Of a stretch of DNA of 64,000 bases, positions 7,401 to 43,680 are shown piece by piece. The stretch covers positions 27,838,001 to 27,902,000 of the forward strand of contig OZ296656.1 of the NCBI GenBank assembly GCA_965655095.1. The letters are read 5' to 3'. Within the stretch, counting starts at the first letter, position 1, and the number at the start of each line of letters is the position of its first letter. This DNA comes from Haplodiscus bocki. Taxonomy: Eukaryota. Made by a program: the position numbers and the translations under genes. The notes beneath the pieces were generated by a model. That model had not been told where the DNA came from. It ran no database searches and saw only the letters and a list, made by a program, of their open reading frames with translations.

Positions 7401-8549
7401 GGTATGATTTCCTAGAAATGTCTTTTCCACTTCAATTGTGAGGTTATTTGGTTGAAGTTCAAAAGTTTTCCAAAACTTGGAAAAATTAGATGATCTGATG
7501 AAGACACAGTATTTCGAAAAGAACGCTTTACTGTTCTAAAAAGGCATCTTTACCTATATGGGAGGGCGAAAATTTAGCTGGTGGTAGCTGGCCGTCTTGT
7601 TTCTTTTTTCTGCGAAAATTTGCCGGATAGAAGACACCATTCTTTTTCTACTTGTCCCGCTGAATGTCCGAATATTCGAAAGGAGAAGCCAAGAGCTCTT
7701 GTTTTGCATCTTCACTCAAAAATATACATCTTGGAGACTATTGGTCAGATTGTGCGGACCCAGCACTCAATCGGCTAACTGCTGCCTCAAGGGTTGGTGG
7801 AATGTTGTCAGTGATTGTCGATTTTGATAGTTTTTCTGTTGATAAGTTTTTCAACTGTACAGAATCGCACACTTTCGCGCAGTTTCGACAGGTTTCGCAC
7901 TGAAGATTTTCTTTATGCTCTTCAAACTTTACTCAATTCACACCGGTGTTTTTGCGTGGGTTTCGACCCCATCGTGTTCATTCTGAATGTGGCGGCAGCA
8001 TCATTTAAAGTCATAGAAAATCTGTTGTTTTTTTGGAAGCGACAGTGCATTGTGATATATGTGTGCGTCATGTCTTTGGTTTCTAAAATATCTTTTCTGT
8101 TTTAAATCAGTTTTGCAAGTGTTTGCGAAGCCCAGCTTCCCACTTTTGTTAGACGTGAGCGGTCGACGCTTCCCATTTCCACTCTTCTATTGATAGAATT
8201 TTCTCCGACACCTTAGTGTTCCGAAATTTTGTCAATTCTCTTGGGATGCGAACGCGCGGCCTTTGACTGCGGACGCATTGGTTCTACGGAATGTGCCATC
8301 CACTCTTGCGGGCTAACACATATCAGTTGTGTAAATAAAGGTCGATTACAGCTGCGTTTCTGGGGAAATTAAAAAGTAATTCATGAGTAATTCAAACGTT
8401 ATTTTTTTGACTATCCATCGGATGGCGACCGTTTTCAAATCATGTCTGAAGGTTTTGTTAAGTGATATTAAGTTCTTTTTTCACATTTTTGCCCCGAAAT
8501 TTTTTAATGCTTCTATTGAGGAATTTAAAAATCTTTATTGCGTTATTTG

Positions 8550-8940: not shown

Positions 8941-11900
8941 TTAAGTACTAGGCGCCAGTCGGTTATAGGGTAATAGCTAAAATGGTTTATTTTGAACGTT
9001 TCAATGTGAAATGATTGGACTTGCGTTCCAAAATTGAAAGATGTTGTCACCTTGCGTAATTCGTTTAAGCTGTTCAGAAATCGGTACTGGTGTGACTCGG
9101 TGTACCCAGTGCCAGTTCAACTATTCGTTGTTTATTGCTTTCGAGGAGTACTGGCCATGGGTTTTTAAAAATGTTATCGCGAACTATATTGACCTCGGTT
9201 GGAATTATCGAAGCTGTTTCCTAATGATAGTTTTTCACTTTTGCTTCCCCTTTTGGCTCGTTCGCCTTCGTTTTACCCAACCTACATAAATGCTGAATTA
9301 CTTGTTGTCTTAATTTTTTCGGAACACCTGAACTTGTTTTAGGAAAACACGATTTCCTTTGGCGTCTCGTTGGAAAGTAATTAGATTGTGTTCATCCCAC
9401 GTTGCGTAGACTTTCCGCTGCATAGAGGCTCTACGTAGTATAAAGGTTAATCTGCTCCATCCTCTGCGAAAACATTGGAATCGTATGTCCTGTTTCGTTT
9501 TTACCGAGATATGAATAAATTTACAATTTGAATTGAGATTTTTTTGTTGTGTGGCGTTCTCCTGGTGACTATGGATTGTTTTCATTTAGCCCTAACCTCA
9601 ATGTTTCGGAAATGATTTTAAGTAAGATTGTATTGAATAGCTACCTTGTGTAATTCGTTCCCAGTTTTCTGTGATTTTCGCTACAGATTAGGTTCAATAA
9701 TAAAGTGAACAGTTTTCGTCGATGGGCACTACAGTCGGAGCTGTTTGTCGCCTTGGCTGCAGTTTTTTTCGAAGCGCTGCTTCGCTGCTGTGCGATGGAC
9801 TTGCTACAGGCAAATGTTGGATAGGATCTTTAACCTCATCTCTGATTCGTTGAAAACTCGCTTCGGTTTTTCATCTGTTCGTAGGTACGCTGGTTTAAAT
9901 TTGGAGGGAAATTGATGGCTTCGTTTGATTCCTGAGCCTGCTTTGCTTTGCAAATGCCGCCATTGAGTTAAAAAATTTGTTGAACGAGTTCGGACTGAAC
10001 TGTCAATTGCGTTTAAATGAATAATTCTTCTAGTGGCTCCATATTTGATACTTGACTGAAAAGCCTGATCTTTTCCGTTCACATTTTGTACTTTGTTCTT
10101 TGGGTTTTAAACTTCCACTGTCAGTTGAAACAGCTCCATTATCGGAAATCTGTTAAGTAGCAGGGGTGTCATATTTACTACTGACGAAATAACTTGAACT
10201 GCTTTTTGGAAGTCGAAATCTTTTTTATTGCGTCTTTCAAACTTTTCTCAATGGCTACTAGCCCCTGGATGTCATCCACTGCTTTTTCGAAATACAGGAA
10301 CCTTGAAAATCTGCGGAGAATCAGGGATGACCGATTTACTAGCTTTTCACGCAAGGTATCCTGACTTGTACTTCGAATATGTGAAATGTTGTTCTTTCGT
10401 CTTCAAAATTGTTTTTCTCAGAGTGCTTGTTGGAATGCGGCCATCGAGTCATCTTTCGGGAGACCGTAATATATAGAATGTGGGAAGAAGCCAAGATGTG
10501 CGTTTTCATTTTTTTCCTACGAAACATGACCTGTTTTTTTTTTAATTTGGTGCACATAGGCGAAAACTGCTTCTTTGCGCTGTTTTCTGTGGAAATTTTC
10601 TGAACGTTGGGCCGGAAAAATGCGTAACCTGAGAAACACTTTATCTGTTTTTTGCACTAGTGTTAGCAAGTGGTTTAACACGGAGGCGGTGGTGATTTTC
10701 TCCGACCCTGGACAACAGTTTTGCTCGGAATTGGAATTGCATTAATTGTTTGTGGGCCCTTAGTTTCGCGTTTTCGAGAGATTTTCGCACATTCTGCCCT
10801 GTGAATGAAAATAGCAGCTACGATTACAGCCAAATCAATTGAAAGTGTACAGTTTTCAGGAGTGTTTTCATTTTTGTTGTTTGGAACCCGAAGTTTTGTG
10901 TGATATTTCAGAATTGTTTTCTGGAAAACCAATGGGTGGATTGCCGCTATCCAGTAGTCATTTGAAAGCCTGCATTATGAAGAATATGTGAAAAAGCTGG
11001 CATGTCTCGTTTCATACATTTCTTGTGTACATTTCTCATTGAAGTTAGAACTTGGAATTTGTTTTACTTGCGTCATTCTTCAAAATTGTTTTTAAGACTA
11101 CTTGTTGGACTTTGGCTATTCAGTACTGATTGAAAACTCACAATAAGAATTTGCGAAGCAGGTTGGTCACATTCCTTGGCTTGCGTACTCTACGCATGAA
11201 GTATTTTGACAGGTTATTTATAAGTCGGAGAATTATTGCTTTCGTATTTTTTCATCAAATTTTTTTTGTCGAAGACCATGGCTTGGATTCGAACACATTC
11301 GGAAGTTATCAAAATGGAAATTCTGCTGAGTGCCTTAGATGTCCTATATCAAGCCTCTTATGCGTTACTTCTTCACCTGTATTTTGGATTCGGATTTTTT
11401 ACTTGCTTTTTTTTCAAAATCTTTTCTCGAAGAATACTGGTTAGACGGCGGTCATCTAGTGCCTCATTTGATATCTATTCAGTGGGATTGCTTTTGAACG
11501 TCTATATTTTTATTTTCCGGCTGAGTTTTCCTGGAAAAGTTGCGAAAACGAAAGTTTCAGAAGAATCAAATGATCAGTTTTAGTCGTTTTGGAGATTAGT
11601 CGATGCCCTTCCTCACCTTTGTCGCAAGTGTATGCAAAACATAGCTTCGCCTCTGTGTTAATTTTGAGACAGTATGGCAGGTTTATGTTCTTTTCCACCT
11701 TTACTATGGAAGTTTCTTTGGCCTGCAAAATGGCGTAACCTGAAAAGAGATGATTGACATATCAACTTATCGAGTATGAAGCCCGGTGACAGCAACTTGT
11801 CTCAGTTTCACTTTTTCGAATAGACTCTTGTTGGACGCTGGTTTAGTATTTCTAAAAGTGTCAATTTCATCTCAAGTCATGGTTTCAAATGTCTTTCGGG

Positions 11901-12861
11901 ACAAGCCAGAAGTTCAGCTGCCCCTCTGTTTTCGAAGTTTTCCGCGGAGACTACCGGTTGGATTGCGAACATCCAAAGCTCATTGAAAAGCTCGCGTTAT
12001 GGAAATTTTGCGAAGAAACAGTCAAGTCCAGTTTTGTACTTTTCTAATGGACTATTTTTACTTTTTATTGTAATTCAACTATCTGTTAGCATGCGTCTTC
12101 AAACTTGTTTCTCCAAAAAAAGACTATTGGTTGGATTCCGGCTATCCACTGCTCAACTGGAATCCTGATTAATAGAATTTTTGCTGTTTAGCAGCTGTAA
12201 AGTTCTCTTTGTAACGTTTGGTCAATACGAAAACTTCACAGGGCAAGAGATCAAATAGTCGATGCCGTTTTTTTCGTCGCAAGTGTATGAGAAACGCATC
12301 TTTGTCTCTGTGTAGTTCAACTGAACTGATTAATAAAATGAACAACCGACTGCTTTCAATGACATTTAGTCCGTGTGTGTCAAGATTTGAAATGATGTGG
12401 TTTTTTACAGCTCGTGAAAACGTTTGAAGAAACTTTCCGAATTCATGATTTTCTACTTTTGCTTTTTACAAGGCAATAGTGAAAGTGGGAATTTTTTGCG
12501 AAAACTTCATCGAATTTTCAACAAGTTATTAGTTTATCTAGCCATTTTTAATTGGACAGGTTTCGTTTTTATGTTCGAGAAACTTTTTGTGGTCGATTCT
12601 CAACGGATAAAGATTTTCTCGGTTGTAGGCTAAATGGATCTTCGTATGCAAATTCGATAGCTACATTTTCGGATTTTTTCCCGGAAATGACTCAACTGTT
12701 TCAGTGTTTTCCTGTTTGAGCCTGATTTTGAGAATAAAATGGAAGTCTATTTTGGACGAAATGGTTTTTTTATTTTGGAAAGTTTTTTCCGAAAATCTGC
12801 ACTGATTTTCCTCGATAATTTTAGTCTTCAACAATACAAAAGTGATAGAGGCGAATTTCAG

Positions 12862-13254
12862 GAGAAGATTCTGAGCAAAGGAGCAGCCTCTCTGGAGAAA
12901 CCTCTGAGTCACTTCCTTCAAGACAGTGAACTGGATGCTGAAGACAAAGTGAGACTCTTCATCATCTACCTGTTGACTAGACAGAGCAATGACGAACAGC
13001 AGGGAGGTCTTTCAAGTGCCGAAATTGACTCCTACTGTGCCGAACTGGAAGCTGCCGGGTGTGACACGAGACCAGTGGCCTACATCCGCAAGTGGATATC
13101 CGTCAACAGTATGAGTGGGGGCATTGCATCGAAAAGTAAACAGCTGTACACAGGGGGAGGCAATATTGGATCTGCCAAAATGTTCTCAAATCTTCTGTCT
13201 CAGGGCTCTCAGTTTGTAATGGAAGGAGTAAAAAATTTTGTGCTTACTCACAGG
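12862..13254 (+). CDS. SCFD1: Sly1/SCFD1 exon, after a 9.36-kb intron
   Basis: tttcag acceptor and gttagt donor. Encodes EKILSK..EDKVRLFIIYLL..GSQFVMEGVKNFVL, continuing in phase 0 from ..FFESE. Confidence 0.93.
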
Positions 13255-14071
13255 GTTAGTGTTTCTACGAGAATGAATACGAATAGTAGGTACGAATATA
13301 TTGCATAACTCGGTAATTTCAAAATCGAAAGATCATTCTCAGGTATCTAGTTTTACGATGCTTAAGCTAAGTTTTATGACAACTTGGTCATGTAGGATCC
13401 AAAGTAATGCAAGTCATTAAAAGTGTGTTTCATTCTTACAGCAACATACTTGTAGTGACTGAGGATTCCATTCCATCTGACTGGATTCCATTTCTCGCTG
13501 AATTAAAAGTTTTCAATTGAAGTTTTTGAAATTGACAATAGAAAGTGAGAACACTGTGAAAAAGTGTTGTCGTGGAAACAGTTAATAGAAGTTTTGGTGA
13601 ATCTTCAGTGAAAGCGTTTTCCGCGATTAGTAAATTATTGCAGAGAAAAACTCAAAAATAATCAAGTTGAGTTTATATTCTCTGAGATGAAAACGTGTGT
13701 GAAAAGTTAACGTTTGTAGGGAATTATTTTTGCCCGCTTGTATCCGTTTCCTTACGGGCATTTCTAACATTTTGTTCTAACAAATTATTGACGCTGAATT
13801 GGCAAATTCACACAACACGTATTCGCTGGAATTACGCTGTTTGTTGTACTCCGTGTTTTCGAATGGCACTGTTTGCAGGTAAACATTGCGCTGTATCGTT
13901 GAGAAAATTCGGTTATTTTGCTTAATTCTACGCAATCTTCCAAGTTTTGGAAAAATTAATGACAGGAAAATGCAAATTGCATTGGTCGAAAATTGTTCGG
14001 ATGAAATTGTTTGTACCTTTATTTGTTCTGTGTGGATTGCATTCAAATGGTGATTTTCTTTGTATGTTTAG

Positions 14072-14320
14072 AAGTTGCCCGTGACGCGAATAGTTCAGAA
14101 TTTGATGGACAACAAGAGTGGACTGGGCAACGAAGTGGATGAGTACGAGTACTTTGACCCCAAGGTAGTCAAGAGTGGCCTCGGGGGAGGGGACATGGAC
14201 AGCGGTAGCAGTACGCAGCACATCCCCCGCACCAAAAATCCTTTCACCGAGTCCATCGTGTTTGTTGTTGGCGGAGGAAATTACGTGGAGTTCCAGAACC
14301 TCATCGACTTGTTCAACAAT
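14072..14320 (+). CDS. SCFD1: Sly1/SCFD1 exon
   Basis: tttag acceptor and gtaaaa donor. Encodes LPVTRIVQNLM..YFDPK..PFTESIVFVVGGGNYVEFQNL. Confidence 0.95.
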
Positions 14321-14405
14321 GTAAAAATTTTACGCCTGAACTCCGCCTTTTTTGTGTGATGATGACTAGAACGATAAATTAAATGTATGATTTATTTTTT
14401 TTCAG

Positions 14406-14474
14406 TCCAAAAATGGGAAGAAAATAGTTTATGGATGTACAGAATTGTCAAATGGGAAAGATTTTTTGAAACAG
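14406..14474 (+). CDS. SCFD1: Sly1/SCFD1 short exon (not in the ORF track)
   Basis: ttttcag acceptor and gttcgt donor. Encodes SKNGKKIVYGCTELSNGKDFLKQ (Sly1 consensus ILYGCSEL). Confidence 0.9.
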
Positions 14475-14587
14475 GTTCGTCTAGTAGTTTTGTTATTCTT
14501 CATTCATTGTTCTTCATGATGCGCTTGTGGCGTTTTATATATTTTTTTGCTATCTCTTATTGAGACTCATAACACTCAATGTTTCAG

Positions 14588-14608
14588 CTTGCAATGTTGG
14601 GCGAATAG
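14588..14608 (+). CDS. SCFD1: Sly1/SCFD1 terminal exon with stop codon
   Basis: tttcag acceptor. Encodes LAMLGE*, matching the Sly1 C-terminus (LSQLG..). Confidence 0.85.
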   Translation, partial: LAMLGE

Positions 14609-17600
14609 TTTGAAGAAACTAGTTTGAGAATTGTCTGGCTTTGAGCTGAGAAAAGAAAGCTGAATGTGTGTAGTACAACCGTCGGTGGTGGCATTTTCTT
14701 CACTCCAAAAGAAGCATCTCTTCCAACTGCGTGTTCATTTGTTTTGTACCTCAGTGTAAAAATGTTGCATAATCTTTGACTGAAATGTGGTGTATAACAT
14801 CGAAATTTATCAACAAAATTTAATTGCTATTTAATTATCATTACACCGGTTCTTTTTTGAGCAGGTCATTATGAAAAAAATAAAGCAAGTATGTACAGAT
14901 ACAACATGTTGTTCCATACTCAAGCATGTAAAATTTATCGCTATCAAGATCCCGAAAATGGCGTCGAATGCAAGCCTTGAAGATAAAAGGCATCAGCGCG
15001 CTGAACTGCACTCCACTATTTAAAAATTTATTGAGGAGTCCCAAAAATGCCTGAGATTAACGGAAATTGAATGCAAACTAACTAGGCAATAGATATTGCG
15101 CGAAAACACTAGTAATGGGAGAGTCAACGCAGACGCATAATCTAAAGTTGAGTTCAACTCTGAGCAGTATCTTTAGAAATCAATTATATCTTTCCAATCA
15201 TTTTACAATGGACAAAGCAAAACGGGGATGAAAAGGCGAGGTTGATGAATTTGAAAATTGCCTGGAAAAATGTGGAAATATGCGTTGAAAGTTGTCTGGG
15301 TCATGGATGGGGTTTGTGCGTTTATTCATTACACCTAGTTATAAGCGGTTGTATTTGGTCCCAACGAAGTTAATTGTGGTTCGTCTTTTTCCGTGCCTAC
15401 CCAACACAATGAAACACCGCGGTTTCCTAAGAGTGCGACTGGAATTTTTAGAAAACTTTGGAAGAATTCGATTGAGAAAATACGTTTTCGTAGTGGACAA
15501 AGATACCGTGAGAAAGTGCATTGAGTTATCAAATTAATCCTAGTTGCTATAATAGACACTTCAAACAAATTGGAATTTCCGCCAGAAAATGCTTACTTCC
15601 TCTTGACTGCAAGTATTGGTCATGGTCAGTAAATTTTGCAGTTTTCGTAGAAATTTTGAGAACGATCCGAGACAGGAAGAAATGCTGAAAGGCGCCTTTG
15701 ATCTTTAGGATTTTCGGATATCATCTTCAATTCACTTTTACAGTATGTTGAAAATATATTTTAAAAAATGAGCAATATGCGTTTTGAAAAAATGACATTA
15801 AACATTTGCCAATTTGTGTCGAAAATTCACGTTTCCACGCAAAACTACCATGATGAATGTAATGCAGCCTGTAATTGAGATGATTGCTGAGATTGAATGA
15901 CAACGAAATTCAATGAGAGGTACAGCAGCTTTGCGATAAGTTCCGTCAACGGTCGCTCAGAAATCGCTCAAAAACGAAATGGCTGAAAATTTCGAAAAAG
16001 CGGAAATATTCAGAATTCGAGTGAAGAAGCTTCGGCAGGGTTGTCAGCACTGCATTCTAGGTGTCCAGAGGAACGTTTAGGTGCTAATTTTATTCTGGCA
16101 AACGTGATTTTAAACATGCGGAATTGGCGAATTTCCCGAGAAAAAGTACTTATTGAGAGAATGATACGCTTTTCATAGTATACATTACGGTCGAAACTTT
16201 TTACCATTTTTTTGGAACTTTAGGTCTTTCAAAATTGCCAGACAAATACTGGTAAAAATTTAAATGGAAAAGCTCCAAAAGGGACTGCTGATTGGAACAT
16301 TGATGGATGTATTGAAGCTGGAATTTTAGGCGAAACTTGAGTTTAATAAATGCGGAAGATCAAAGCTAACAGCAAATTTGTGGAATTTTGGACCCAAAAA
16401 GTACTGATGGAACACGCAAACACAGCAACGAGTTGGATATGAAGTTGCTGGAAATCGTAGAAGACTAGTTTAGAACCTTGCTTGATAAAATACAACGGAT
16501 ACTTATGGCAGGGAAAGATCGATTTTCGCGGAAAATGAATACTAGTAACACTTTTTGCTTGGTGTGGCTTTTGTTTATTTTTTTACCAAAACACTGATGG
16601 AAGACGCAAAACGGTGACAGATTACGTGTAGTTGCTTCTACAAGTAGAGGACTCTGTAATAATACAGTCGGCTGTTTTGAAAAAAATTTTAGTTTGAATC
16701 TCGCGGAAAATCAATTTCCGGAACTAACTGTCAGACTGTGGGGATTCCAAAAGAAAACGGAGTACTAAAAATGGGTAAAACCAAAAGGATTTCAGAATTA
16801 GAAAACTTGATTGGGAACCTGATGGATGTAATCCACCTAGTAGTTATGGCGAAAGTAGAATTCGTATACAGCGTAAAATTATTATTGAAACAGTTTGTTG
16901 CCACTTTTAGTCCACCAGAACTCCAACGCAAGACAGAGTTTTATTAAGGGGTCATTAAAAAAGTTTTTGTAGGGAAAAACAATATTTGGGATCTTGATGT
17001 TCGTAATCCAGCCGGTGGTTGTGGCGGGAATCGAGTTAAATATTGCGGGAAAACAATACCAGAAAAGTTTTTTTTTCGCCTGTGAGAAATCTGATGAAGT
17101 AATCAAAATCCTAGATTTCGTTATTGATTTCCTGTATACATGTTGCAAGTTGTCCATTGATGTCTTGAAGGGATAACTTAAACCAGTAGTTTTGGGAAGT
17201 GAAGGTTTTAAAATCGATCATAGGCATTATCATTGGCACATTTTACCATGTGCGGTCTGTCCGGATTCCAAAACAAAAATCAAATCTGGCAGTTTTGTGG
17301 TGAAGGCTTCTGCACAAAAAACGACTGAGGACCTGCTGGATGATATCAAGCCAGAGTTTTGGAAATAAGACAAATTGAAAATCGAAAGAATAGCAATACT
17401 GATTGATTTTTGGCCTATGGGAAATGCAATGCAAAAAACAATATCCAACTTTTGAATGATGAATTCCATTCTAAAAGTTGAACGACGTCAATTGAGACTG
17501 ATAGAAAAAATGGAGGGGGAAGTTTTGTTGGAAAATAATTTTGGTCAGAAAGGAAAATCAATACCCCTTTTCCAACTATTTTGAACTAAAATGATTAGAC

Positions 17601-19520
17601 AAAAAAGATGTTCCCCCAGACAATGTTTTCGTTTTTTTTTCGAAACCTGGAAAATATCACATCTTTTTTGTCAGAGATTTGGCCTCAATTTTGTATGTTT
17701 TTCTGCAATAAATTTTTTCATTTTTTTAAATCATTATTGTTATCATGAAGTTCAAAAAATTTCGGCGTCTTCTGTTTTTTGGATTTTTAATTTCAAGTCA
17801 AATTATTCAAAATAGCTCAAAAGTTTCGAAATTTTACGCCAAAAGCCGAAAAATTCAAAAATAGAAATATAATATTTCCAATGTTTTCAGACTACTTGTT
17901 TAATATAGGAAGAATATTGATAAAATGTCAAAACTCGTTGAAATAAAATGTCAGTCGGAGTTGGGATCATTCTAAGCCTTCGTAGTGACGGAATGCTGGT
18001 AATTTATTGTCATTGTCAGTGACCACTAAGCTTTAGAGGTAAGCAATGAAAAATGTGAAAGTAATCGCGAAGTTACTTGAGAAAGTAACTTAGAATTGGC
18101 AAACGCTCAATGAAAAAAGTCTACACACTGGGGGAACGATTTTCCTTTCGTAATATGTCACGACGGAAAACAACAAGAACTAGACATTACGTCAGCAATG
18201 CTAACTTCAATGCACGCAATGTGAACCATTTTTACGTGAAAAGCCGTACGCGTAGTATGGCTCTAGCTTCCAGCTGTAAACCAGCCGGAAGGTTTCACGT
18301 TGATTGGATTTGACATGCCAATCATAGACGGACAGTTCAACACAACCACATTGACACATATAAATTTGACACTATTCAATCATAAGACTTTCTTCATGAA
18401 CCTAGTTGCAGTCAAGGTAACTCCATTTGCCAAGTAGGAATGCATATGGCCGCGGTATGGCATACCTGAGTTCATTACTAGTCTCACCCACAATGTTATC
18501 GAAATTGCTCATAGAATCTCAATTTTTTTAGACTACTATTCGTAGGGACGTTGAAAAATCGGTATGTGAGTGCAAGACGAAAAATGCTGATGTCGGTCCG
18601 ATTCAGGTGTGACATATTCGCTGAGAAAACACTGTAGTTTTCATTGATGTTGATTTTTTCTAAAGTATTCAAACAAGATATAAGCACAAATATTAATAAC
18701 TTGTTCTACATTTTCAATTTGACATCGGAAAAATGCCATGGGCCGCCGGAAACCACTGTTTTCGATGAATGACATTCCATGGCGTTTCAACTCCGAATTC
18801 CGATTGTCTATACTTCCTCCTCGAAGGTTCGATGCCAGCCGGGGAGCATTTGCTCTTTCAATTTTTTCAAAGTAGATTTTGCGGAAATATGGTCATGATT
18901 TATCAAATGCTTCAATGTTATTGACAAGTTTTTGGCTTGTCAGTTGCCATTTAATATTATTGTCAGTCCAAAAACTGTCATTTTTTGTAAAGTTCAGTTA
19001 AAATATTGAAAGAAAAACTCCAACTTTGATAATTTTCTGAACGAAAGTAGCAATAGTTTTCCCGAACTGGTAAAATACTGAGTGATCATCTATTCTAAGT
19101 AATAATAGCTTGAGTAAACAATCCATAATGGAAGACAAAAATTCAATTTTTATCATTTTCGAACCCTAATATTTGTGAACTTGTACTGAGAAAAAATAAA
19201 TATACCCATGAGCTTCATCAACGCAGGAAATTTCTTGCACCAGAAATAGAAAGCGTAGTACTTGAGATCGGGGTATTAGTTCCGAGGTTTGTTAAGTAGG
19301 ATATACGAACCCTTCGTCTTCAAAATTTAACATTTTTTTTCGCTTTTCAATAATTGATTCCATTTTTCACGCTGTACATGAGTGAATCGGTTTCATTGAA
19401 GAATGTGTGTTAGTACAACAGCTGAAACTCTTTTCATTCATACCGGCTACTTTTTAGTCTGTCTGTACATTTATTCGAATCGAGATATTTAGCTGAGCAC
19501 TCAACTCTTGAAAACCGGAA

Positions 19521-19812
19521 ATGTGTCAGCGAAAAATCTCCCTTCAGTTCATTCTCGTTATCAACATAATTTCCCTGGTGCTCACTGGGGTAGCTATGAT
19601 TGTCCTTATTTGGGCATACACTCGCTATGACGCAGGCTATTACGTAGCTTTGGCTGGAGGAGATGCCAAGATAGTGAAGCTAGTCTTCTTGGGTTGTATG
19701 CTGGCTCTCGGGGGCATTATGGTTTTGTGCATTGCTGGCATTGTAGCAAGTTGCTGTTTGGAAAAAAAGTGCATGAGTTGTTATGCCATTTGCGTCATCA
19801 TTCTTCTTATAA
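19521..19812 (+). CDS. Tetraspanin-like gene, exon 1 (TM1, TM2, start of TM3)
   Basis: MCQRK then hydrophobic TM1, small loop, TM2 ending GIVASCCLEKKC (tetraspanin G..G..E..C pattern), and TM3 start YAICVIILLI. Phase-1 donor a|gttagt. Confidence 0.8.
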
Positions 19813-22800: not shown

Positions 22801-23864
22801 TCCATTTTGGTAAAAAATTGTGTGTTGTATTGCAAGTTTTCAATTAATTAATACTGTTGTAATTTTTTCCTTAAATCCCCAATTTTGTGACCTTTTACCC
22901 AATTTAGCCTTTTATGTGTTAAATGTAGAGGTAAAAAGATACGTGGATGGTGTGAAAAACTTTTGAATGTAGTTCAATGTGTTCCAAAAGATTAGTATAG
23001 AAATAGAAAAAAAATATGATATTATTCAATTTTAATAAAAAATAATTAACATATGTAAAGGTTATTTTAAGAGGAAAAGAAAATGATATTTTTGTTCCTC
23101 CAAGCTAAATACCACTTGGATGATAAACGCATACTTAGAATGCATAACGAACAATTAGGCTTGGATTAACAGCTCCTCGGCAAAAGCAGGGAATATAAAG
23201 AGAACATCAACGGAGTCACCCGAGCTTTCAACTCAGAAATCACTTCACTCAGATATTAAAACAGACAAGAACAAAACAAGTAGGTAATGGGAAATTAAAA
23301 GTTGGACCATGTTATAGCGGTGAAACGTATCTTATGATTTAAATATCTTAGTGAAAATAGAACTTATTTATCAGGTTTTCTGAACAGCACAGAAACAATG
23401 AAGTCAACGTAGAAGTCACCTCCTCGGATAGCCACAGATTGGAGATATATTAGGATGTTAGACATACCCGGGTCGAAATTTTGGCTGACCTTTTTCAACG
23501 GTGGCGACATCGGCCGAAAAACGCACGTATTTCGTGGAAAAACCGGTGGTGACCGGCGTTCCTTCGAAGTTTAGCTGCGGTTACCGGCGTTTCTTGGAAA
23601 AATGGGAGCGGTTACCAGCATTTCGGGGGAAAATTACGGCAGTAACCGTACTTTCGTAGCAAAATTCAGCCGTTAAAAGACTTTTTCAATGTTGATTTTA
23701 ATTTTGTTCAAAATGTGTTTTCCTGATGTGTATTACGTTTCTGGGCCACACCCAAAAATAAACCTTTTTCCAGAGGTTGAAAAAGGGAAAGTTGAAAATA
23801 AAAAATTCTCAGTTTCAATCTTCTTCAAAAATCCTCTGTTCAATTCACCAAAACATAGGATGTA

Positions 23865-24144
23865 AGTAGTGTATAAAAAAGCATTTGACACCAGGCGCGC
23901 ACGACGCATCCTCGTCCGACACCAACCACTCAACAAAATCACAAAAATACAAATCCTAGGGTGTATAATTATACAATAAATAATAATTAGAAGAATAAAA
24001 ATATATTAATCAAATAATTGAATGAATACAATAAAAAATATTTACACCCTAGGATTTATATTTTTGTGATTTTGTTGAGTGGTTGGTGTCGGACGAGGAT
24101 GAGATCCTTTGCGACTGATGTCAAATGCTTTTTTATACACTACT
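23865..24144. repeat. Left terminal hairpin (arms 23865-23965 and 24043-24144)
   Basis: 26-bp perfect stem, 16/17-nt bubble, 59-bp stem with one mismatch, 77-nt AT-rich loop. Confidence 0.97.
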
Positions 24145-24347
24145 TAAGTCGTGAAAGTATATGATTATGTTTACTTAGAAATAAAATTGAAATTATAAAA
24201 TTACTTATATATTCTAGATCTTTATAATTTTTACCAAAACGTCACCGGTGTGTTAGCTTTAATCTCCTCTACAAATGTTAGAAAGTATGTATATACATTT
24301 CCACATTTACGCAAACGTATATTTTTAAGTTGAAACGATACTGAGAA

Positions 24348-24430
24348 TTTCACAAAATTCTTCACAAAAAACTTCACAATTTGTGAAAAAATTTGTGAAA
24401 AATTCACAGGCTGTGACGTTTTTTGTGAAA
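24348..24430. repeat. Array of TTCACAA/TTGTGAA heptamers
   Basis: Three ttcacaa copies then ttgtgaa copies at 12-nt spacing around ttcacaa-t-ttgtgaa. Confidence 0.7.
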
Positions 24431-24589
24431 AAATTTACTGGCTAACGAATGATAAAAAAAATATACACTTAGAAAGCTCGTTAAAAGTTTAGTATACCCT
24501 GAAAATTTCATCATTGTATCTAATACCATCTTCGAGAAATATGATCGTTAACACTTTGCTTAAACATGTAGAGATTATAAAATTTTAAG

Positions 24590-24832
24590 CTAGAACAAAG
24601 TGTGATATATCATTGGATAGCTTGTTGAAATATAAGTGTACGCTGAAATTTGCAGCTCTATATCTATTATATTCTTAGAGAAAATTGATGGAATTATAAG
24701 ATTTCTTTTTATTAGATAATATTTTTTCATGATATCTTGCATTTCTTTGTCCTCTCGATACAAACTTTTTAGATTTGTTGTTATTTTTAACTTGTCTAGT
24801 TTTTCAAAGCATTCTTTTGATTTTACAACCAT
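24590..24832 (-). CDS. Polinton hypothetical protein
   Basis: 80-aa ORF starting at TATAAATG like its neighbours. Confidence 0.5.
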   Translation of the reverse strand: MVVKSKECFEKLDKLKITTNLKSLYREDKEMQDIMKKYYLIKRNLIIPSIFSKNIIDIELQISAYTYISTSYPMIYHTLF

Positions 24833-24840
24833 TTATATGA

Positions 24841-25450
24841 TCACAATCTGGCCAAGCAAAGATATACGTAATTATCATCGCGACTCACTGGTCTATATCT
24901 ATGCCACAGAAAACCATACTTAATATCTTTCTCAAGATCATTTAATTTTGTTATATGTTTAAGCAAATTCGATTTTAATACTTTTCTAGGTTGTTCAAGA
25001 CGATGTCTCGGAGTCATAATGTAATAATACGAGTAAAACGTAATTGATAAATTTTTTATAACTGTTTCAAGAGATAATTTTTCACCTTTCATCAAAACAT
25101 GCCCTCGTATACGATATAGTATTTCCTCACAAACGGGATATAAATAACGAAAAACCTCATCACCAAAACCATATTTTATCAGTCTTTTTTTTAGTCTTAT
25201 CATACCAAATCACTAAATCCTCACCAAATAAATTACACTTTACCAATGTTTTAAAGATTGGAAATTTTAATCTATTAGTATGAACATACTCACGAATAAC
25301 TCTGTAAAAGTCTTTCCAATAGACATCGCCAATATTGTGTTTTTGTCTTATATATGATTTCATGTGTAAATGACTTTTAGACTTAATGTGTCTTGTTTTT
25401 GATTTTCGTTTAATCGTTTTATCGCAAATATCGCAAAAGTAATCCATCAT
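24841..25450 (-). pseudogene. Polinton C2H2 zinc-finger protein, probably one frameshifted gene
   Basis: N-terminal CDICDKTIKRKSKTRHIKSKSH finger. ORFs 25160-25450 and 24841-25203 overlap around a homopolymer run. Confidence 0.55.
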
Positions 25451-25470
25451 TTAATATACTTCAAAGTCTT

Positions 25471-25785
25471 TTAATTATCATCTCCAATTATCAATTTACC
25501 ATTATTATCTTTAATTAATTTCTCAAATGAGAGCATGTATAATATATTTTCTCTTAAATCATGAATATTTGCAATAATATTTTCAATATCATTATCATGA
25601 ATTTTCAAAATTATATCGTCAATTATAGACAGTGATGCAATAATCGTTGTATGTGGAATTGTTTTATGAAAACTCTCAATTATATATTTTCGTACTTGAT
25701 TGAGTTCTTCTGCAACTCCTATATTTTCATGATCGTAAAATAATGCATGATTACAAAAATTTAATATATCTTTTATTGTCTCCAT
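25471..25785 (-). CDS. Polinton hypothetical protein
   Basis: 104-aa ORF, TATAAATG start, tightly packed. Confidence 0.6.
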   Translation of the reverse strand: METIKDILNFCNHALFYDHENIGVAEELNQVRKYIIESFHKTIPHTTIIASLSIIDDIILKIHDNDIENIIANIHDLRENILYMLSFEKLIKDNNGKLIIGDDN

Positions 25786-25804
25786 TTATAAAGTAAAAAT
25801 TATA

Positions 25805-26329
25805 TTAATCATAATTCGAATGAATTTTATTTATTTTTATATTCTCAAGTTTCATAATATTATCATAATCAATATCAAACAAATTATCAATATCATCTAT
25901 ATCAATACTTTTTCTCTGTACAAATCTAAAATATGGTGTTGAATAATAAATATTTTCCCAACCTATTGCTATACTATATGGTGATAAATTATTACTCATA
26001 TTTGAGATATATTTATAAATTTTATCATTAGTTAGAAAACTACATACTTTATCACTGCCGATAAAAACATAGATATGTTTATTATTTTCTTCATTTACTC
26101 TAAGCAGAATAGTATTTCCATTGAACACTTCTCTATTTCTAGCTCCCGAAAATTCTGTCATATTACAATCTTCACTCTTGCCAATAAATGTCTCCATAGG
26201 ATTAACTTCGTATATAATATTATCATCATCAGAAACATCCTCCAATCTCTGTACACGAACCCATCCTTTATTGCGAGTAGTAACAGCTAAGCGTTCACAA
26301 TTACCTTCGCAGACATATATAATCGTCAT
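25805..26329 (-). CDS. Polinton hypothetical protein
   Basis: 174-aa ORF in very AT-rich DNA, TATAAATG start. Confidence 0.7.
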   Translation of the reverse strand: MTIIYVCEGNCERLAVTTRNKGWVRVQRLEDVSDDDNIIYEVNPMETFIGKSEDCNMTEFSGARNREVFNGNTILLRVNEENNKHIYVFIGSDKVCSFLTNDKIYKYISNMSNNLSPYSIAIGWENIYYSTPYFRFVQRKSIDIDDIDNLFDIDYDNIMKLENIKINKIHSNYD

Positions 26330-26577
26330 TTATATAGAGAAAAATTACTTTCAAGATACTTTGTTCTACTAATTTTCATTTTTAATTCCATATCTAAATC
26401 TGATATCTTTATCGACATTTTATTTATTAATTCTTTAAGAATATTATTCTGAATTAAATTATCATATACTATCTCATTTTTACGATCACAAGTTAATCTA
26501 TTATATCTATCTAACATATTATTTATTTTCATACATATGAAATGATCTTTTTTAATCACATCTATAAACGCTTCCAT
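26326..26577 (-). CDS. Polinton hypothetical protein
   Basis: 83-aa ORF whose stop overlaps the next start (ATGA). Confidence 0.55.
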   Translation of the reverse strand: MEAFIDVIKKDHFICMKINNMLDRYNRLTCDRKNEIVYDNLIQNNILKELINKMSIKISDLDMELKMKISRTKYLESNFSLYK

Positions 26578-26638
26578 TTGTAATGTGTAGAAAATTGAGA
26601 TCTTATTTAAATCATTTCAAGTAATCTTATCTAAATAA

Positions 26639-26812
26639 ATGGAATGTGCAGATTATGAAGTTATTTATTGTGAAGATGATGGAGAATGTAGAGTATATTG
26701 TAATGTTTGTGATACTTTATGTATAGAACGATTTGATAAAAATCATTTGAAATCTCAAACCCATATGAATAATATTCGTAAAAAGAAATCTATTTCAAAT
26801 ATTTCTACTTAA
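26639..26812 (+). CDS. Small C2H2 zinc-finger protein (57 aa, below the ORF track cut-off)
   Basis: MECADYEVIYCEDDGECRVYCNVCDTLCIERFDKNHLKSQTHMNNIRKKK..; TAAATG start. Confidence 0.65.
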   Translation: MECADYEVIYCEDDGECRVYCNVCDTLCIERFDKNHLKSQTHMNNIRKKKSISNIST

Positions 26813-26820
26813 ATAAAAAT

Positions 26821-36562: not shown

Positions 36563-37930
36563 ATGGAATTAACAGAAGATGAAATTATACAAAAATATGC
36601 CAAAAAATGCCTACATTGTAATAGAAATATGTTGCTACCATATAAAAATGAATGGACTTGCTTCTCGTGCGGATTCAATATAAATTAACATAAACATGAA
36701 CTCTCAAAAATACAAAGAAAGAAAATCAATTTTATTATTCGATTAAAATATGAAGAAGTAAAAATATTTTCCATATGTGTAGATTTATATATCATATGAT
36801 TTATTTATATAATCATATGAAGGTGATGATTATGATGAAATATATAAAAATTTATCAACATTAAAAAATAAAAAATTAAAAATAAATAATACCTTAATCG
36901 AGATATATAAAGATATGTTAGAAAATCCTAATTTTGAACAAAATAAGTACTCAATAACTTCAAAAGGTATATAAAAAAATGGCCATGATGGTATACGGTT
37001 AATGAAATGGATTTGTTTTTATGATAGATCATACTATGAAAATATAAATTATTATGATTTGATGGGTTCTCTTTGTTATGATTTAAATGAATTATCTAAA
37101 CGGTGAATGTCACGTTGAAGTAAAGGATCATCGATATAAAATCCATCCAACTGAAAATATTATTTTACGCAAACGAGATGAACCAAAATCTCTTAGAACT
37201 CAATATAAAGTTCAGAATGAGGCTCAGATAAGAAAGAATCAGAAAGTCATCAAAAATGATAATAATGAACTAGTAGTAAAAAATTATCCCAAAAATAAAC
37301 AACCAATTATTCAACAACAAAAATTTAAACCACCCAATTGTCCATCCTGTAAACAAAATAATTGGTTAGAATTTGATAAAGGTTAATATTGCACAAATTG
37401 TGAATATATCATCAACAAACAAAAACATGAGATAGATAAAAAAGTTCTTAGACAAGATCATGATTTTTCTACTAGCTTGAATTATGCTAATAAAAAAATA
37501 AGAGAAATATATATAAATATGGCTATTACTACTTATAATTCATCAGAAGATATGATTAAAAAATTACAAAGTTTAAAAGGTAAGACAAAATTAAAATTTT
37601 ATGAAAATATAAGTAATTATCATATTGAAATGAAAAATAAAAATTTTCAAACCAATAATCAAGATCCTTTTGGCTAAAAATGCTCAAGGTATTAGTAAAA
37701 TTTATCATGAAGTATTATTGCTGATGAAATTTTTACAGACTAAGCCTGAAGTTAAGAATATGAATATTAATTATCTTGATTTATATTTTACCGTTATTAA
37801 AATTAGAGATGAAAACAAAAATATAGATAATCAATATGATAATGATGAAAATGATTATATTGATATAAACGATTTTATTGATCCTAATCATTATATTGGG
37901 ATTCAAAATCGTGAAACAATATTGAGATGA
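36563..37930 (+). pseudogene. Two disrupted hypothetical genes with CxxC pairs (starts at 36563 and 37087)
   Basis: TAAATG starts; CLHC/CFSC and CPSC/CTNC motifs; several stops and frameshifts. Confidence 0.45.
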
Positions 37931-38001
37931 GATAATGGAGAAAAATGAGATCTTGAATAAATCATTTCAAGTAATTCCTACTATATAAATAGAGACGCAA
38001 A

Positions 38002-41000
38002 ATGAGTAGCCGCAGATGTGAAGTTTGTAATGTTGATGTTCATAGATCATCTTATGCAAAACATTTAAAAAGTAAGAAACATATAGAAAATATGAAACAG
38101 AATGAAATGATTATACCGGAATGGTTGTATCAAGAACCTGTTGAAAACAAATATAATAAAATATATAATCCTAAATCATTAAAACAATTAGCACGAAATA
38201 ATATTAAATTAGATGATAAGCAATTAAATAAAGAATTAGCTAAAAAGATGCTTAATCCATATTATTTTACTGATAGAAATTTGAAAGTTGCATATAAAAT
38301 TTATTTAGATAGCCATCATATTAATCATTTAAATTCTAAAGTAACTATTACATCAATTTTCGAAAATACAGGAATAGAATTTAGATTTATTAATAAAATT
38401 ATGAGAGAGATGTCTATTATATATGCTAGATTAATAAATCAATAAATATTCAAATATCAAACTGTATTTTCAACTAGATTTGATAAGCAAGATGAAGACG
38501 GTCAATTATTAGATGAAATAGAATTATTCATTAATTTGAATATGAATTATAATATAACACAAAGCGATATTGATAATATTAATATTACATTTCCACTAGA
38601 ACGCCAGATTCAAAAACAAGAAATGAAAGATTCTGGTTGGAGATTTGATAAAATTAATTCTATGACAATATATTTTTAAGGAACTATTGAAATGAATGGT
38701 TTAAATTATACCAAAATTCCTTTGAGAACAAACGCTATCTTGAATATTGAAAATAACGATAAATATTGTTTCTTATGGTCTATATTAGCTTGGTTACATC
38801 CTTGTAATAGAAATCATCCCAACAGACTTTCAAATTACAGACAATATTTCAATGAATTGAATATTCAAGGTTTCGATTTTACTAAAGGATTTAAATGCAG
38901 CGACGTTCACAAATTTAATGAATTAAACAATTTATCTGTTAATATATTTGAATTAAATTTTTATCAAGATCAGAATTAATGGAAACATAAATTAATACCT
39001 ATTGAAGTTAGTAAAAATAATTCAGATAGAGTCATCGATTTAGCTATTTACAAAAATCATTTTGTTCTTATTAAAAAATTAGATGTATTTTTAGGTGATC
39101 ATAATAAAAAATATATTTGTAGGCAATGCTTATGTTCATATACAAGCGAAAATATGTTATTGAAACATAAAGAAAAATGTGGGGATGATAATATAACTGT
39201 TATCAAAACTTCAAATGAATCACATCTACAGTGGAAAAAACATTTTCATAAGAATCCTTTATATTTCAGAATATATGCAGATTTCGAAGCTGATAATGAA
39301 AAAGATAATTCTATTATAGGTAATAAAACAACTAATATGTATAAACAAAACCCAGTATTGAATGGTTATTATATAGTATCTGAATTGGAAGATATTTTAA
39401 AAAGTGATTATTACAAATCTCCTTTAGGATATAATAATGTTGATTGGTTTGTTGATGAGGTCATAAATTTAGAAAATAAAATGGCTTTCTATTTTAAAAA
39501 TACTAACAGAGATATCATTATGACGCAAGAAGATGAAGAAGATTATAAAAATAATAATATTTGTCGATTTTGTGAAAAATTTATTGAATCTGATAAAGTT
39601 AGAGATCATTGTCATCTAACTGGTAATTATAGAGGACCGGCTCATAGCAAATGTAATATTAATGCAACGCAAAAACAAAGTAACTTTATTCCATTCATAT
39701 TTCATAACTTTAGTAACTATGACTGTCATATGTTTTTTAAAAAGTTGGTTGATAAAAAGAAAGATAAAGTAGTTTTCGATATTATACCTAAAACAAACGA
39801 AGAGTATATATCAGTTACTTATGGTTGTATCAGATTTATTGATAGCTATCGAGTCCTATCAAGTGGCTTGGATTCATTAGTTAAGACATTAGTCGATAAT
39901 AGTCATAAAACATTAGAAAATTTGAAAAAAGAAATTGTTGATAAAGATGAAATATTAAATATTATTGATGAAATAGTAGAAGAAGATAAAACTATTAAAG
40001 ATTTAAAGAAAGATTATCCAGATAAAATTAAATTTTTAGAAGAAACGTTACTTGATTATATGGGAGAAAATGATCTCAAAATATTAAAAACAGGATTTCC
40101 TGACAAATGGAAATATTTAACAAAAAAACTAGCTTATCCATATGAATATTTTAATAGTATTGATGATTATCAAAAACCTGTTGACAATTTAAAGAAAGAA
40201 CATTTCTTCAGTAAATTGAAAAATAAATGTTCTGATGATGAAGAAATAGAAAGAACAATGGATATTATTAGGAGATTTAATATTAAAAATGGAGAAGAAT
40301 TAACACAAATATATTTAAAAAGTGATGTACTTCTGCTTGCATGTGTCTTTGAAAAATTTATAAAAGTGTCAGTTAATGAATTTGATATCAATCCACTATA
40401 TTGTGTGTCTCTGCCAGGCTATACTTGGCAGTGTGGTTTAAAGAGTACGGGAATAAATTTACAAACACTCCAAGATAAAGATATGATATTGTTATTAGAG
40501 AATAATATACGTGGTGGTATTTCATCTGTTATGGGAGATAGATATATAAAATCAAATGAAAATAAAAAGATATTATATATAGATGCGAATAATTTATATG
40601 GTCATAGTATGTCTCAACCATTACCATTCGATGAAATTAAATTTGATAATAATGTTACCTTAGAAGGTATATTAAATACTCCTGATGATAGTGATATTGG
40701 ATATTTTGTTGAAGTTGATTTGACTCATCCAAATAATATAAAAGAGAAAACAAAGAATTTTCCGTTTGCTCCTGTGAATAAAAAAATTAATCCTGATGAT
40801 TTTAATGATTATATGAAAGAAATTAGACCTAGTACGTATGTACAATCTAGTAAATTGATATGTGATTGGTCTGATAAGAAAAATTATTTGGTTCATTATA
40901 GGATGTTGAAATTCTATATTAGATATGGATTAATAGTAGATAAAGTTCATAGTGTTATCTCATTTAAACAAAGTAGATGGTTAGAAAAATATATTAGTTT

Positions 41001-41818
41001 TAATACACAAAAACGTAATAAAGCTAAAAACAATTTTGAGAAAGACTTCTATAAATTATTAAATAACGCTTTTTATGGTAAGACGATGGAAAATGTTAGA
41101 AATCGTTTGAAAATAAAATTTATTAAAAAAGATGATCATAAAGAAATAATAAAACAACAATCTAAATTGACTTTCAATGGTATTCATAAATCATAGGAAA
41201 ATTGTGATAGTTATACATTCAAGCAAAATGAATTTCATATGGATAAGCCCATATACTTGGGATTTTCCGTATTAGAATTAAGTAAATTATTGATGTATGA
41301 GACTTATTATGATATATTACAACCATATTTTGGACAAGAAAATATTCAATTACATTATATGGATACTGATAGCTTCGTATTAAGTGTAAATACAAAAGAC
41401 ATTATCAAAGATTTGAAAAATCTTGAAGATATATTTGATTTCAGTAACTTAGATAAAAATCATGAACTATTCAGTAATAAAAATAAAAATGTGATTGGTA
41501 AATTTAAAATAGAAACTCCTAAGAATATCTGGATAGATGAATTTGTGTGTCTAAGAAGTAAAATGTATGCTTTTAAATGTGGAAATGATAGTAAAAATAA
41601 ATTGAAAGGTATTTCTAAATCTCAATCAAAAAATATTAAATTTGGAGAATATATAAAATGCTTAAATGGAGAGGATTTTCAACAAGAATGTGATAATTAT
41701 ATTATAAGATCAATTAATCATGAAAAGATTCTTCAAAAAGTAAAAAAAATCTACACCTTCTATTTTCGATGATAAACGATATTATCTAAATAATATTGAA
41801 AGAAAACCATGGAATTAA
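38002..41818 (+). pseudogene. Protein-primed family B DNA polymerase (pPolB), with four in-frame stops and a C-terminal frameshift
   Basis: One frame with stops at 38443, 38677, 38977 and 41194. Motifs: ExoI IYADFE, ExoII FHNFSNYD, ExoIII YLKSDV, A YIDANNLYG, B KLLNNAFYGKT, C YMDTDS, and an embedded RDHCHLTG..AH..CN domain. Confidence 0.97.
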
Positions 41819-41887
41819 TATCAATTTCTCGAAGGTTATAATAGATATAAAGCTATAATTTTCAACGTACACTAATATTTTCACGAG

Positions 41888-42127
41888 CTATCCAAAAACA
41901 TATAACAATTTGATGTAGTTTAAGGTATGTCGACATATACTGATTTTATTAATTTTCTCAAAGAATATAATATCACCTGGTTTATATATTTTGTAAGTTA
42001 CGTATGCAGGAATATTTAATTCTATGTTATTTGGTAATGGTAAATTATTAAAATTGTTTATGTGTATATTTGTTATCATTCTACCATCTATTTCCCTATA
42101 TAAATATTTTTCTTTTAGTTTTGTCAT
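41888..42127 (-). CDS. Polinton hypothetical protein (possibly truncated)
   Basis: 79-aa ORF convergent with pPolB. Confidence 0.4.
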   Translation of the reverse strand: MTKLKEKYLYREIDGRMITNIHINNFNNLPLPNNIELNIPAYVTYKIYKPGDIIFFEKINKISICRHTLNYIKLLYVFG

Positions 42128-42263
42128 TATAATTTTTTTGATATTATGATATTCTGATAAATTTGATATTATTTTTATCTAATTCAGATGGAGATGAAAA
42201 TATTTGTAAATATCTTTCATATTTAGATAGTTTTTATATTTGAAATGATTTTTAGTTATATAA

Positions 42264-42569
42264 GTGATTGAACTAAAAGATGTTTTAGACTATATTGATA
42301 ATGGTATAACTGATAATAATAATAAAACTCACTATATATTATATATATCGATGATACATGATTTCTTTTTAATTTTAGAGGGTATCGATTTTGGTATAAG
42401 GTATGAATTATTGGAACAATCAAATCTAATAATAACAAAATTAATTGACTATGAAAATGGTTTGTTAAGAGATGATTGGTTTAAGATGAGGAATTTGATA
42501 GTTTCAAATCTTATAGAACAAAACGAAGAGCTAGATGACGATGATAGATATTTCAAATCATCATCATAA
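42264..42569 (+). CDS. Polinton hypothetical protein; start probably mutated (TATAAGTG from TATAAATG)
   Basis: 101-aa acidic ORF just inside the right hairpin. Confidence 0.5.
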   Translation: MIELKDVLDYIDNGITDNNNKTHYILYISMIHDFFLILEGIDFGIRYELLEQSNLIITKLIDYENGLLRDDWFKMRNLIVSNLIEQNEELDDDDRYFKSSS

Positions 42570-42623
42570 TCTTATAATATCAATTTTATTTCTAATTCAA
42601 CATAATCGTATCCTTAATCGTCG

Positions 42624-42913
42624 AGTAGTATACAAACAAGCATATGACATCAGTCGCAAAGGATCGCACTCGTCTAAGAAGAATTTATCCTATTCAAAAT
42701 CATAACAAACACCATACACCAGGTATGATTATAAATTATCCTATTTTTTATTGTATACATATTCTTTTATTATGTGATTATATTTTATCTTATTCGTTTA
42801 TATATACAATTATACCTGGTGTATGGTGTTTGTTATGATTTTGAATAGGATAAATTCTTCTTAGACGAGTACGTCTTGCGCGTCTGGAGTCATATGCTTG
42901 TTTGTATACTACT
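42624..42913. repeat. Right terminal hairpin (arms 42624-42726 and 42812-42913)
   Basis: 25-bp perfect stem, 19/18-nt bubble, 59-bp perfect stem, 85-nt AT-rich loop. Confidence 0.97.
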
Positions 42914-43680
42914 GATGTACATAACAAAGTAAATACAGTTTTTTAAGCAGAAATTGCTTTTTGCTTTTTTCGAGACAAAAATCATCCACAAAATTGTGGT
43001 ATCAGATATTTGAAAGTACATCAAGTCAATTGATGCTTCATCTCAAAAAACTTGGAAACATTTTTTGGCTTTCTCCGAGGTGAAATCTTCAAAACTAACA
43101 TTCGGAATACGTTATTATAATACAGCGGCGATCTTTTTCGAAGATATAGTCGACGAAAAACAGCCGATTTTCAATTTTCAAAAATATTTTACAATAAAAA
43201 CACATCGGCGCATCTCAGAATGATAACGGCGGTATCAGCGGAAATAACGGTGATCTTAGTAATATATCGGCGAATCTCAAAAAAAATTTCAACGCACGTA
43301 CTTAAGAGCTTCAGCGTCATGAAGTTACTGTTTTGCTTATTGCTGAAATTCTTGATTTCCATCAAAATTTAATGGATGCTTTTTATTTACAAGAGGTAGA
43401 CAGAAGGAATTCGAAGAATAACATTCAACACAATCACATTTCAGTCTCCAAAAGCAAATAATTAGGGGCTGACACAACGAAACAATTTTTTTCAAACGAA
43501 CTCTGAAGAGTATTGAATATAATCGAAAAGATGTTGAAAGTTGAATGTAAAAAACTCAAAAATTCATGTAGAGATGCATACATAGAGAGGAGTAGAACAA
43601 ACAAAAAGTAGAAAGATTAAGAAAGAAAGATAATGAAAGTAATGTTTTTTTATTCAAAATCCGGAAACGAGTTGTATGTC

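Follow-up and report, generated by a model that had tools for sequence, protein, structure and literature searches.

Polintons/Mavericks, whose traits are reportedly also covered by Kapitonov and Jurka in 2006, provide the main frame of comparison for the locus described here. These elements share with it a length of about 19 kb, (AGT)2//(ACT)2 ends, a 6-bp target duplication and genes for a protein-primed family B polymerase (pPolB), an rve integrase, an A32 ATPase and a double jelly-roll capsid protein (PMC8097293). Both (AGT)2 and (AC)3A are known Maverick ends, and the terms hairpin and palindrome are absent from the available text of that paper (PMC8097293). The pPolB2 Polintons of nematodes and oomycetes likewise carry an HNH/endonuclease VII-like domain inserted in pPolB; they differ in being described with ordinary TIRs, and the available text makes no mention of hairpins or palindromes (10.1101/2023.08.22.554363).

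The nearest described case is that of the Halocafeteria virophages and PLVs, integrating Polinton relatives in which palindromes lie beside the target duplication and hairpin priming has been proposed (10.64898/2026.07.28.741278). Their palindromes, however, are 52 nt long, sit inside TIRs and occur preferentially with non-pPolB replicases, and the available text of the preprint mentions neither unequal arms nor a conserved bulge. Excision, replication restart and integration of Polintons have been inferred rather than observed, with a model of excision and TIR annealing at hand (10.64898/2026.07.28.741278). In the pPolB Polinton literature searched, which took in few subscription papers or Repbase reports, hairpin ends with unequal arms were not found; the hairpins of one paper retrieved (10.1101/2022.05.25.493380) are protein beta-hairpins and irrelevant here.

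Asymmetric hairpin ends are known from other replicons. The left end of MVM is an imperfect palindrome of fixed orientation with a one-base spacer difference that acts independently of the base, and a CRE-like site lies nearby; in its GA/GAA bubble the sequence of the doublet is unimportant, and the third base inactivates the origin (PMC1185569). MVM is a single-stranded parvovirus that relies on an HUH nickase (NS1) and host polymerases, whereas the present element is 19 kb long and has a DDE integrase. Vaccinia virus, of the double-jelly-roll lineage, has conserved extra-helical bases in its terminal hairpins, but its ends are closed and exist as two isomers, and it neither integrates nor uses protein priming (PMC8956199). 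In adenovirus and PRD1, protein-primed strand displacement is proposed to release a strand that refolds, so that the origin is rebuilt and the ends are repaired (PMC11886824). This ITR panhandle, which is the accepted account of how protein-primed replicons restart and repair themselves by homology although direct evidence for it is lacking, pairs the two ends with each other, whereas the present element pairs within each end.

Identity and gene content of the element

The window analyzed here (64,000 nucleotides from Haplodiscus bocki) contains an element with a GC content of 23-29%, compared with 31-44% in its flanks (Table 1). It runs from AGTAGT to ACTACT and is bounded by a 6-bp target duplication. 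Its pPolB has 20,559 relatives at E <= 1e-3 and conserved polymerase columns, and an A32-like ATPase (PF04665) and a double jelly-roll capsid protein (PF21738) are present; the first piece of the integrase matches PF00665 with E 9e-4, below the curated cut-off, and is counted here as rve. By these membership traits, the element is a Polinton/Maverick. The capsid protein has 1229 homologues, the best 120 of the 1229 being 83-100% identical. The minor capsid and maturation protease candidates (from 29155 and 31598) gave no informative Pfam or PHROG match; the latter displays a His/Asp/Gln/Cys pattern that we take to be that of an adenovirus-like maturation protease. Searches by tblastn with the capsid protein against phages, and with pPolB against phages and plasmids, returned no match, and a sigma-70 scan, whose consensus is unsuited to a eukaryotic element, stayed at chance level.

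Two endonuclease VII-like sequences are present, one as a domain within pPolB and the other as a stand-alone gene directly upstream of the integrase; no PDB sequence matched the nuclease domain. A vOTU-like Cys/His pattern in pPolB was spotted by eye. CxxC...H patterns occur in two small frames (25163-25450 and 26639-26812) and at the pPolB N-terminus (37993-38100), all without a Pfam match; we assume these to be zinc-finger-like and candidates for end binding. No HUH/SF3 initiator (NS1/Rep) was found among the 33 window frames scanned against Pfam, and the element is therefore not a parvovirus.

The copy is old, with decay of roughly 1%: in the capsid protein, 7 of 430 residues are absent from all other 110 homologues of equal length, and several genes carry stops.

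Table 1. Features of the element (positions in the window) and end hairpins of related loci (positions in each locus)
Feature	Position	Strand	Remarks
Polinton/Maverick-type endogenous virus	23865..42913	.	19,049 bp, decayed
Left target-site duplication GATGTA	23859..23864	+	same 6 bp at 42914-42919
Right target-site duplication GATGTA	42914..42919	+	6 bp
Left terminal hairpin	23865..24144	.	280 bp; outer end and inverted inner copy
Left outer terminal stem arm	23865..23890	+	AGTAGT start; 26/26 paired with inner copy
Left outer-type mismatch tract	23891..23908	+	without extra base
Left inner stem	23907..24101	.	59 bp, 98%; 77-nt A/T-rich loop at 23966-24042
Left inner-type 21-mer	24103..24123	-	extra (bulged) base at 24104, arm position 41
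Left-right homology inward of inner copy	24145..24203	.	49 bp, 88% versus 42567-42615
A32-like packaging ATPase	27552..28277	+	PF04665 above cut-off; one internal stop
Minor capsid protein, probable	29155..29940	+	assigned by size and position; no family match
Double jelly-roll major capsid protein	30208..31500	+	open frame, 430 aa; PF21738, E 2.5e-13
Adenovirus-like maturation protease piece, probable	31598..31903	+	no family match
Stand-alone endonuclease VII/HNH-like gene	35171..35713	+	phrog_1035, E 1.1e-6; weak HNH lead, score 0.89
rve integrase	35691..36562	+	two overlapping frames (broken)
Protein-primed family B polymerase (pPolB)	37993..41772	+	four internal stops
Endonuclease VII-like domain inserted in pPolB	about 39550-39665		within 37993..41772
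Right terminal hairpin	42624..42913	.	290 bp; inner copy from 42624, true end 42913
Right inner-type 21-mer	42645..42665	+	extra base at 42664, arm position 41
Right outer-type mismatch tract	42870..42888	-	
L001 hairpin	8198-8356		starts ACACACA
L053 hairpin	2544-2647		starts ACACACA
L015 hairpin	5614-5742		starts AGTAGT
L009 and L013 hairpins			outer arms cut by contig start

Terminal hairpins

Each end of the element folds into a hairpin (z-scores -22.6 on the left and -21.3 on the right) that opens with AGTAGT and closes with ACTACT, and thus comprises the true end and an inverted inner copy. GATGTA adjoins the two outer copies only, which counts in favor of the outer copies as the working ends; the inner flanks (TAAGTC... 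and ...CGTCG) are homologous to each other and lack a GATGTA repeat. Outside the mismatch tract described below, the arms of one end are 98-100% alike, whereas the inner stems of left and right agree at only 54-56% and the two ends as a whole at 69% over 361 columns. The near-perfect repeats therefore sit within each end, and the element departs from usual Polintons in lacking a near-identical end-to-end TIR and in having at each end its own hairpin, an inner copy and an oriented tract.

The two loops lack significant homology to each other (their score is reached in 94 of 1000 shuffles) and agree in A-rich polarity alone, so that they are given no weight as an argument against flipping. In the window, the 3'-terminal strand does not stand out by its folding energy (-102.1 versus -102.9; -98.8 versus -101.2), whereas in the related loci L015 and L053 it does. 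Further left-right remnants (24469-24730 versus 41769-41972, about 76% for the two longer pieces) extend the homology as far as 1.1 kb inward, and on the right the piece starts at the pPolB stop; they are possibly what is left of an older, longer TIR. Inside the left end, 24354-24436 holds a short imperfect inverted repeat and the 12-bp tandem AATTTGTGAAAA, with none at the right.

The mismatch tract

A preliminary description had placed in both hairpins a conserved, oriented mismatch bubble, and the motifs and positions it gave are correct. The outer arms carry CCAGGCGCGCACGACGCA from 23891 (+) and CCAGACGCGCAAGACGTA from 42887 (-), and both inner arms carry TGACATCAGTCGCAAAGGATC, identical over all 21 nt. 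The 20-nt core of this 21-mer occurs twice in the window even when 3 mismatches are allowed (chance mean 0.01); no further copies of the inner motif were found there, additional degenerate matches being at chance level, and the exact 25-base end pattern has 0 matches in GTDB. The segment is not an open bubble as first described, but an interrupted helix: columns 27-43 hold 7 differences in the left hairpin, columns 26-44 hold 8 in the right one, the remainder pairs, and the first 4-5 bases of the 21-mer belong to the paired stem. Six mismatch positions are common to both hairpins, one of them a single-base bulge on the inner arm.

The claim that the tract escapes the homogenization that keeps the stems alike is borne out. 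When the four arms are aligned from their AGTAGT, with columns 1-24 and 47-105 taken as stem and columns 25-44 as tract, all 30 informative stem sites group left against right and none outer against inner; in the tract, four clean and two partial sites group outer against inner and none left against right (Fisher p = 2.2e-5, the tract borders having been set after inspection of the data). The inner tract is better conserved than the inner stem (21/21 versus 32/59 identical, p 3.5e-5), whereas it does not differ significantly from the terminal stem (17/21) or from the outer motif (17/20), with p 0.11 in both cases. At arm position 41, a shift of +1 gives 19 of 20 matches at both ends in the window, compared with 3 unshifted. 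The bulge is the 20th base counted from TGAC, which may be chance.

A neutral relic, nested mini-elements or a fold-back artefact of assembly would be another account, given that host genomes can homogenize palindromes and assembly can create them. The four singleton differences among the arms may indeed reflect decay, as the private capsid residues and the stops in several genes suggest, and decay of roughly 1% is enough for them. Such an account sits poorly with two ends that differ in sequence and yet have six mismatch positions in common, and with the same oriented bulge in five loci of separate assemblies (see below); it is largely refuted, and we consider it extremely improbable. A nested mini-Polinton (MITE) at each end was considered and rejected, neither hairpin alone being flanked by a target duplication of its own.

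Hairpin ends in distant relatives

Alignment of pPolB yielded 78 GTDB loci with 25-53% best-segment identity. These Polinton-type genes (L001-L078) stand in bacterial and archaeal genomes, often with eukaryote-like flanks, and are probably mis-binned host or viral contigs. An anchored scan over 845 end-motif sites, combined with stem searches, detected end-type hairpins in five, each just upstream of a pPolB 30-40% identical to that of the window. In the other 73 no end-type hairpin was seen; as 42 loci are under 5 kb and most ends lie outside view, no frequency follows from these counts. L009 and L013 are 99% identical, so the five relatives represent three lineages in two clades. In a pPolB tree of 56 of the 78 loci and the window piece, in which deep support is weak, both clades lie apart from the window polymerase; all that the tree shows is that hairpin ends extend beyond a single tight clade. 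The pPolB of L001 has a weak DNA_pol_B_2 match. Intact proteins among the relatives include a 1248-aa pPolB in L015 and the integrase of L001.

These hairpins look like true ends, because their motifs are listed Maverick ends and no window viral protein matches upstream of them; what lies upstream of the L001 and L053 hairpins has nothing in common. One end of each relative is in view, without a second end or a target duplication. The terminal stems are paired at 19, 19, 19, 17 and 19 of 19 positions, and at stem positions 8-19 different elements share only 1-7 of 12 bases. Every one of the five carries a single additional base at position 20 of the inner arm (C, C, T, G and G); with a +1 shift after position 19, 9, 9, 8, 7 and 7 of the next nine bases match, compared with 2-4 unshifted. 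Among L015, L009 and L013, stem sites follow the element (3:0) and sites past position 19 follow the orientation (7:1; p 0.024).

Because the extra base lies on the inner arm at position 20 in 5/5 relatives, the asymmetry can be called conserved in position and orientation. Judged by these comparisons, it is real, under selection, shared with distant relatives and fixed in orientation. All seven hairpins, including the two of the window, are imperfect terminal palindromes with a one-base asymmetry of fixed orientation, as in parvoviruses, and the likeness to MVM noted in the preliminary description is closer than it supposed, since in MVM a one-base spacer difference picks the origin arm (PMC1185569). 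We infer that the element would work like a hairpin-ended replicon. Two distinct protein-binding sites had also been suggested; the oriented asymmetry stands, whereas base-specific recognition would be conjectural, as the relatives keep the position of the bulge and not its base, which points to spacing or structure. In the window (arm positions 22-41), the bulge lies 21 bases, or two helical turns, further in than that of the relatives, which may be chance. Since it stands at position 41 in the window but at 20 in the relatives, the two bulges may not be homologous.

A structural role has a precedent in vaccinia virus, whose extra-helical bases serve I1: the structure is needed there and not the sequence, and hairpins with few mismatches are replicated yet do not mature (PMC8956199). 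The mismatches could similarly mark the ends for a telomere-binding or packaging protein independently of replication, in an element that encodes capsid, ATPase and probably protease genes and whose bulge base differs between elements. We consider this improbable: vaccinia has covalently closed ends in both flip and flop forms, whereas the integrating form here is an open duplex without mismatches, and the fixed orientation would be left unexplained.

The preliminary description had allowed that the outer and inner assignment might be swapped among copies. The extra base is on the inner arm in 7/7 hairpins and the flipped orientation occurs in none, all of them being integrated or probably integrated forms. 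That sampling leaves room for AAV-like terminal resolution that produces flip and flop isomers, of which the integrase would take only ends with the outer type outward; such a filter would be invisible in integrated copies and would account for the conservation of both motifs. It would also require an added nicking step, and by inference only a quarter of the molecules would integrate, so that we regard it as decidedly improbable.

Action of the tract in RNA or transcription, whether as a hairpin in the transcript, as a terminator or as a site for a host transcription factor, would fit the outward transcription of genes near both ends in the window, by which both transcripts carry the same inner-first hairpin; TGACATCA resembles what we take to be a CRE/AP-1 variant. 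The window has 0 Rfam matches, however, and in 5/5 relatives the arrangement is reversed, with the hairpin upstream of pPolB, and the orientation of the bulge to the end is nevertheless kept. The bulge keeps its place with respect to the DNA end motif, and a role in RNA is very improbable. Like neutrality, the packaging mark and the isomer filter, it is less likely than the reading developed below.

In L002, a relative of L001, a candidate AGTAGT end is of the plain kind, without a hairpin, and crosses a G run. Its GTTCTG motif stands at offset 21, the inner-arm spacing of L001 and L053 and not their outer spacing (20). TTCTG(T/G) occurs once forward and twice reversed near the end in L001 (8218-8381), L053 (2564-2676) and L002 (1109-1395), and is a likely protein-binding site that is also present in the hairpin-less L002.

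A proposed role for the unequal arms

The reading we favor, with moderate confidence, is that of a hairpin-ended Polinton whose arms are held unequal so that the outer copy alone serves as the genome end. During strand-displacement replication, the displaced single strand would fold each end on itself, and the self-folded end, instead of an end-to-end panhandle, would offer the duplex from which synthesis restarts and the ends are repaired. Folding of this kind would let the left and right ends diverge while each hairpin remains perfect, and would explain both the divergence between ends and the likeness within them. The duplex genome would then hold two end-like motifs per side. A one-base shift, together with neighboring substitutions in the window family, would move an internal recognition site off register with AGTAGT/ACACAC in one arm, so that end-acting proteins, namely the integrase in excision and integration and the terminal protein-pPolB in initiation, would use the outer arm alone; conversion events that wipe out the arm difference would be selected against. 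Some observations fit this less readily. The candidate plain end of L002 has the inner type of spacing, which argues against the simplest equation of outer spacing with a working end, and the inner 21-mer is conserved no less than the outer motif, which suggests that it is not simply a disabled copy.

In the main rival reading, the arms would serve rolling-hairpin replication: the folded 3' end would prime the second strand directly, and the bulge would then direct cutting of the closed end or dimer junction to one arm only. Cutting would fall to the integrase or to an endonuclease VII-like nuclease, either the domain within pPolB or the product of the stand-alone gene, and the fixed orientation would follow from resolution like that of the MVM left end. 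A 3' end folded on the inner copy would be a ready primer, which favors self-priming over the model of unequal recognition, and the perfect stem of 19-26 bp puts it beside the template. Besides the two endonuclease VII-like sequences in the element, the DHxH...CN pattern of the domain is kept in 46 of the 52 loci that cover it, T4 endonuclease VII nicks bulges, mismatches and junctions (PMC10956419), and hairpin priming has been proposed for palindromic virophage and PLV ends (10.64898/2026.07.28.741278). The nuclease domain, however, is general to the pPolB group, nematode and oomycete pPolB2 included (10.1101/2023.08.22.554363), and has elsewhere been read as a homing-endonuclease or intein relic, while palindromes go preferentially with non-pPolB replicases (10.64898/2026.07.28.741278). 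Short repeated end motifs and the vOTU-type Cys/His pattern point, moreover, to retained protein priming. We consider replication of this kind unlikely.

Implications

A wider proposal, which we hold only tentatively and regard as somewhat unlikely, is that a widespread Polinton group moved from TIRs to parvovirus-like asymmetric hairpin telomeres, with the one-base spacer as an origin or attachment-site switch and endonuclease VII-like nucleases that resolve the hairpin or cruciform and also excise the provirus. If so, such Polintons would stand midway between linear genomes with protein priming and the larger double-jelly-roll viruses with their mismatched hairpin telomeres. The fixed one-base asymmetry, found in three parts of the pPolB tree, is a precise candidate cis-signal, and the bulge may be what the HNH/endonuclease VII domain of pPolB, so far unexplained, acts on. 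Hairpin-ended elements may be overlooked, or given wrong borders, by scans that rely on near-identical end-to-end TIRs.

Additional observations

L015 has an additional, separate HNH_3 gene (10640-11185). In L001, a polymerase-integrase block is repeated in tandem at about 10,000-19,750 with identical reading frames, either as a real duplication or as an assembly repeat. Inverted repeats in L027, L063 (1163-1419), L051, L003 and L001 (6861-7028) were rejected as ends, as they are without Maverick motifs; they look like inserted MITEs or low-complexity DNA. Those of L027 (4288-4654) and L063 are similar to each other and MITE-like, and that of L027 interrupts an integrase frame. To the right of the element in the window, the host DNA contains a direct repeat of about 450 bp (43681-44134 and 49242-49690), the copies being 81-98% identical and 5.56 kb apart.
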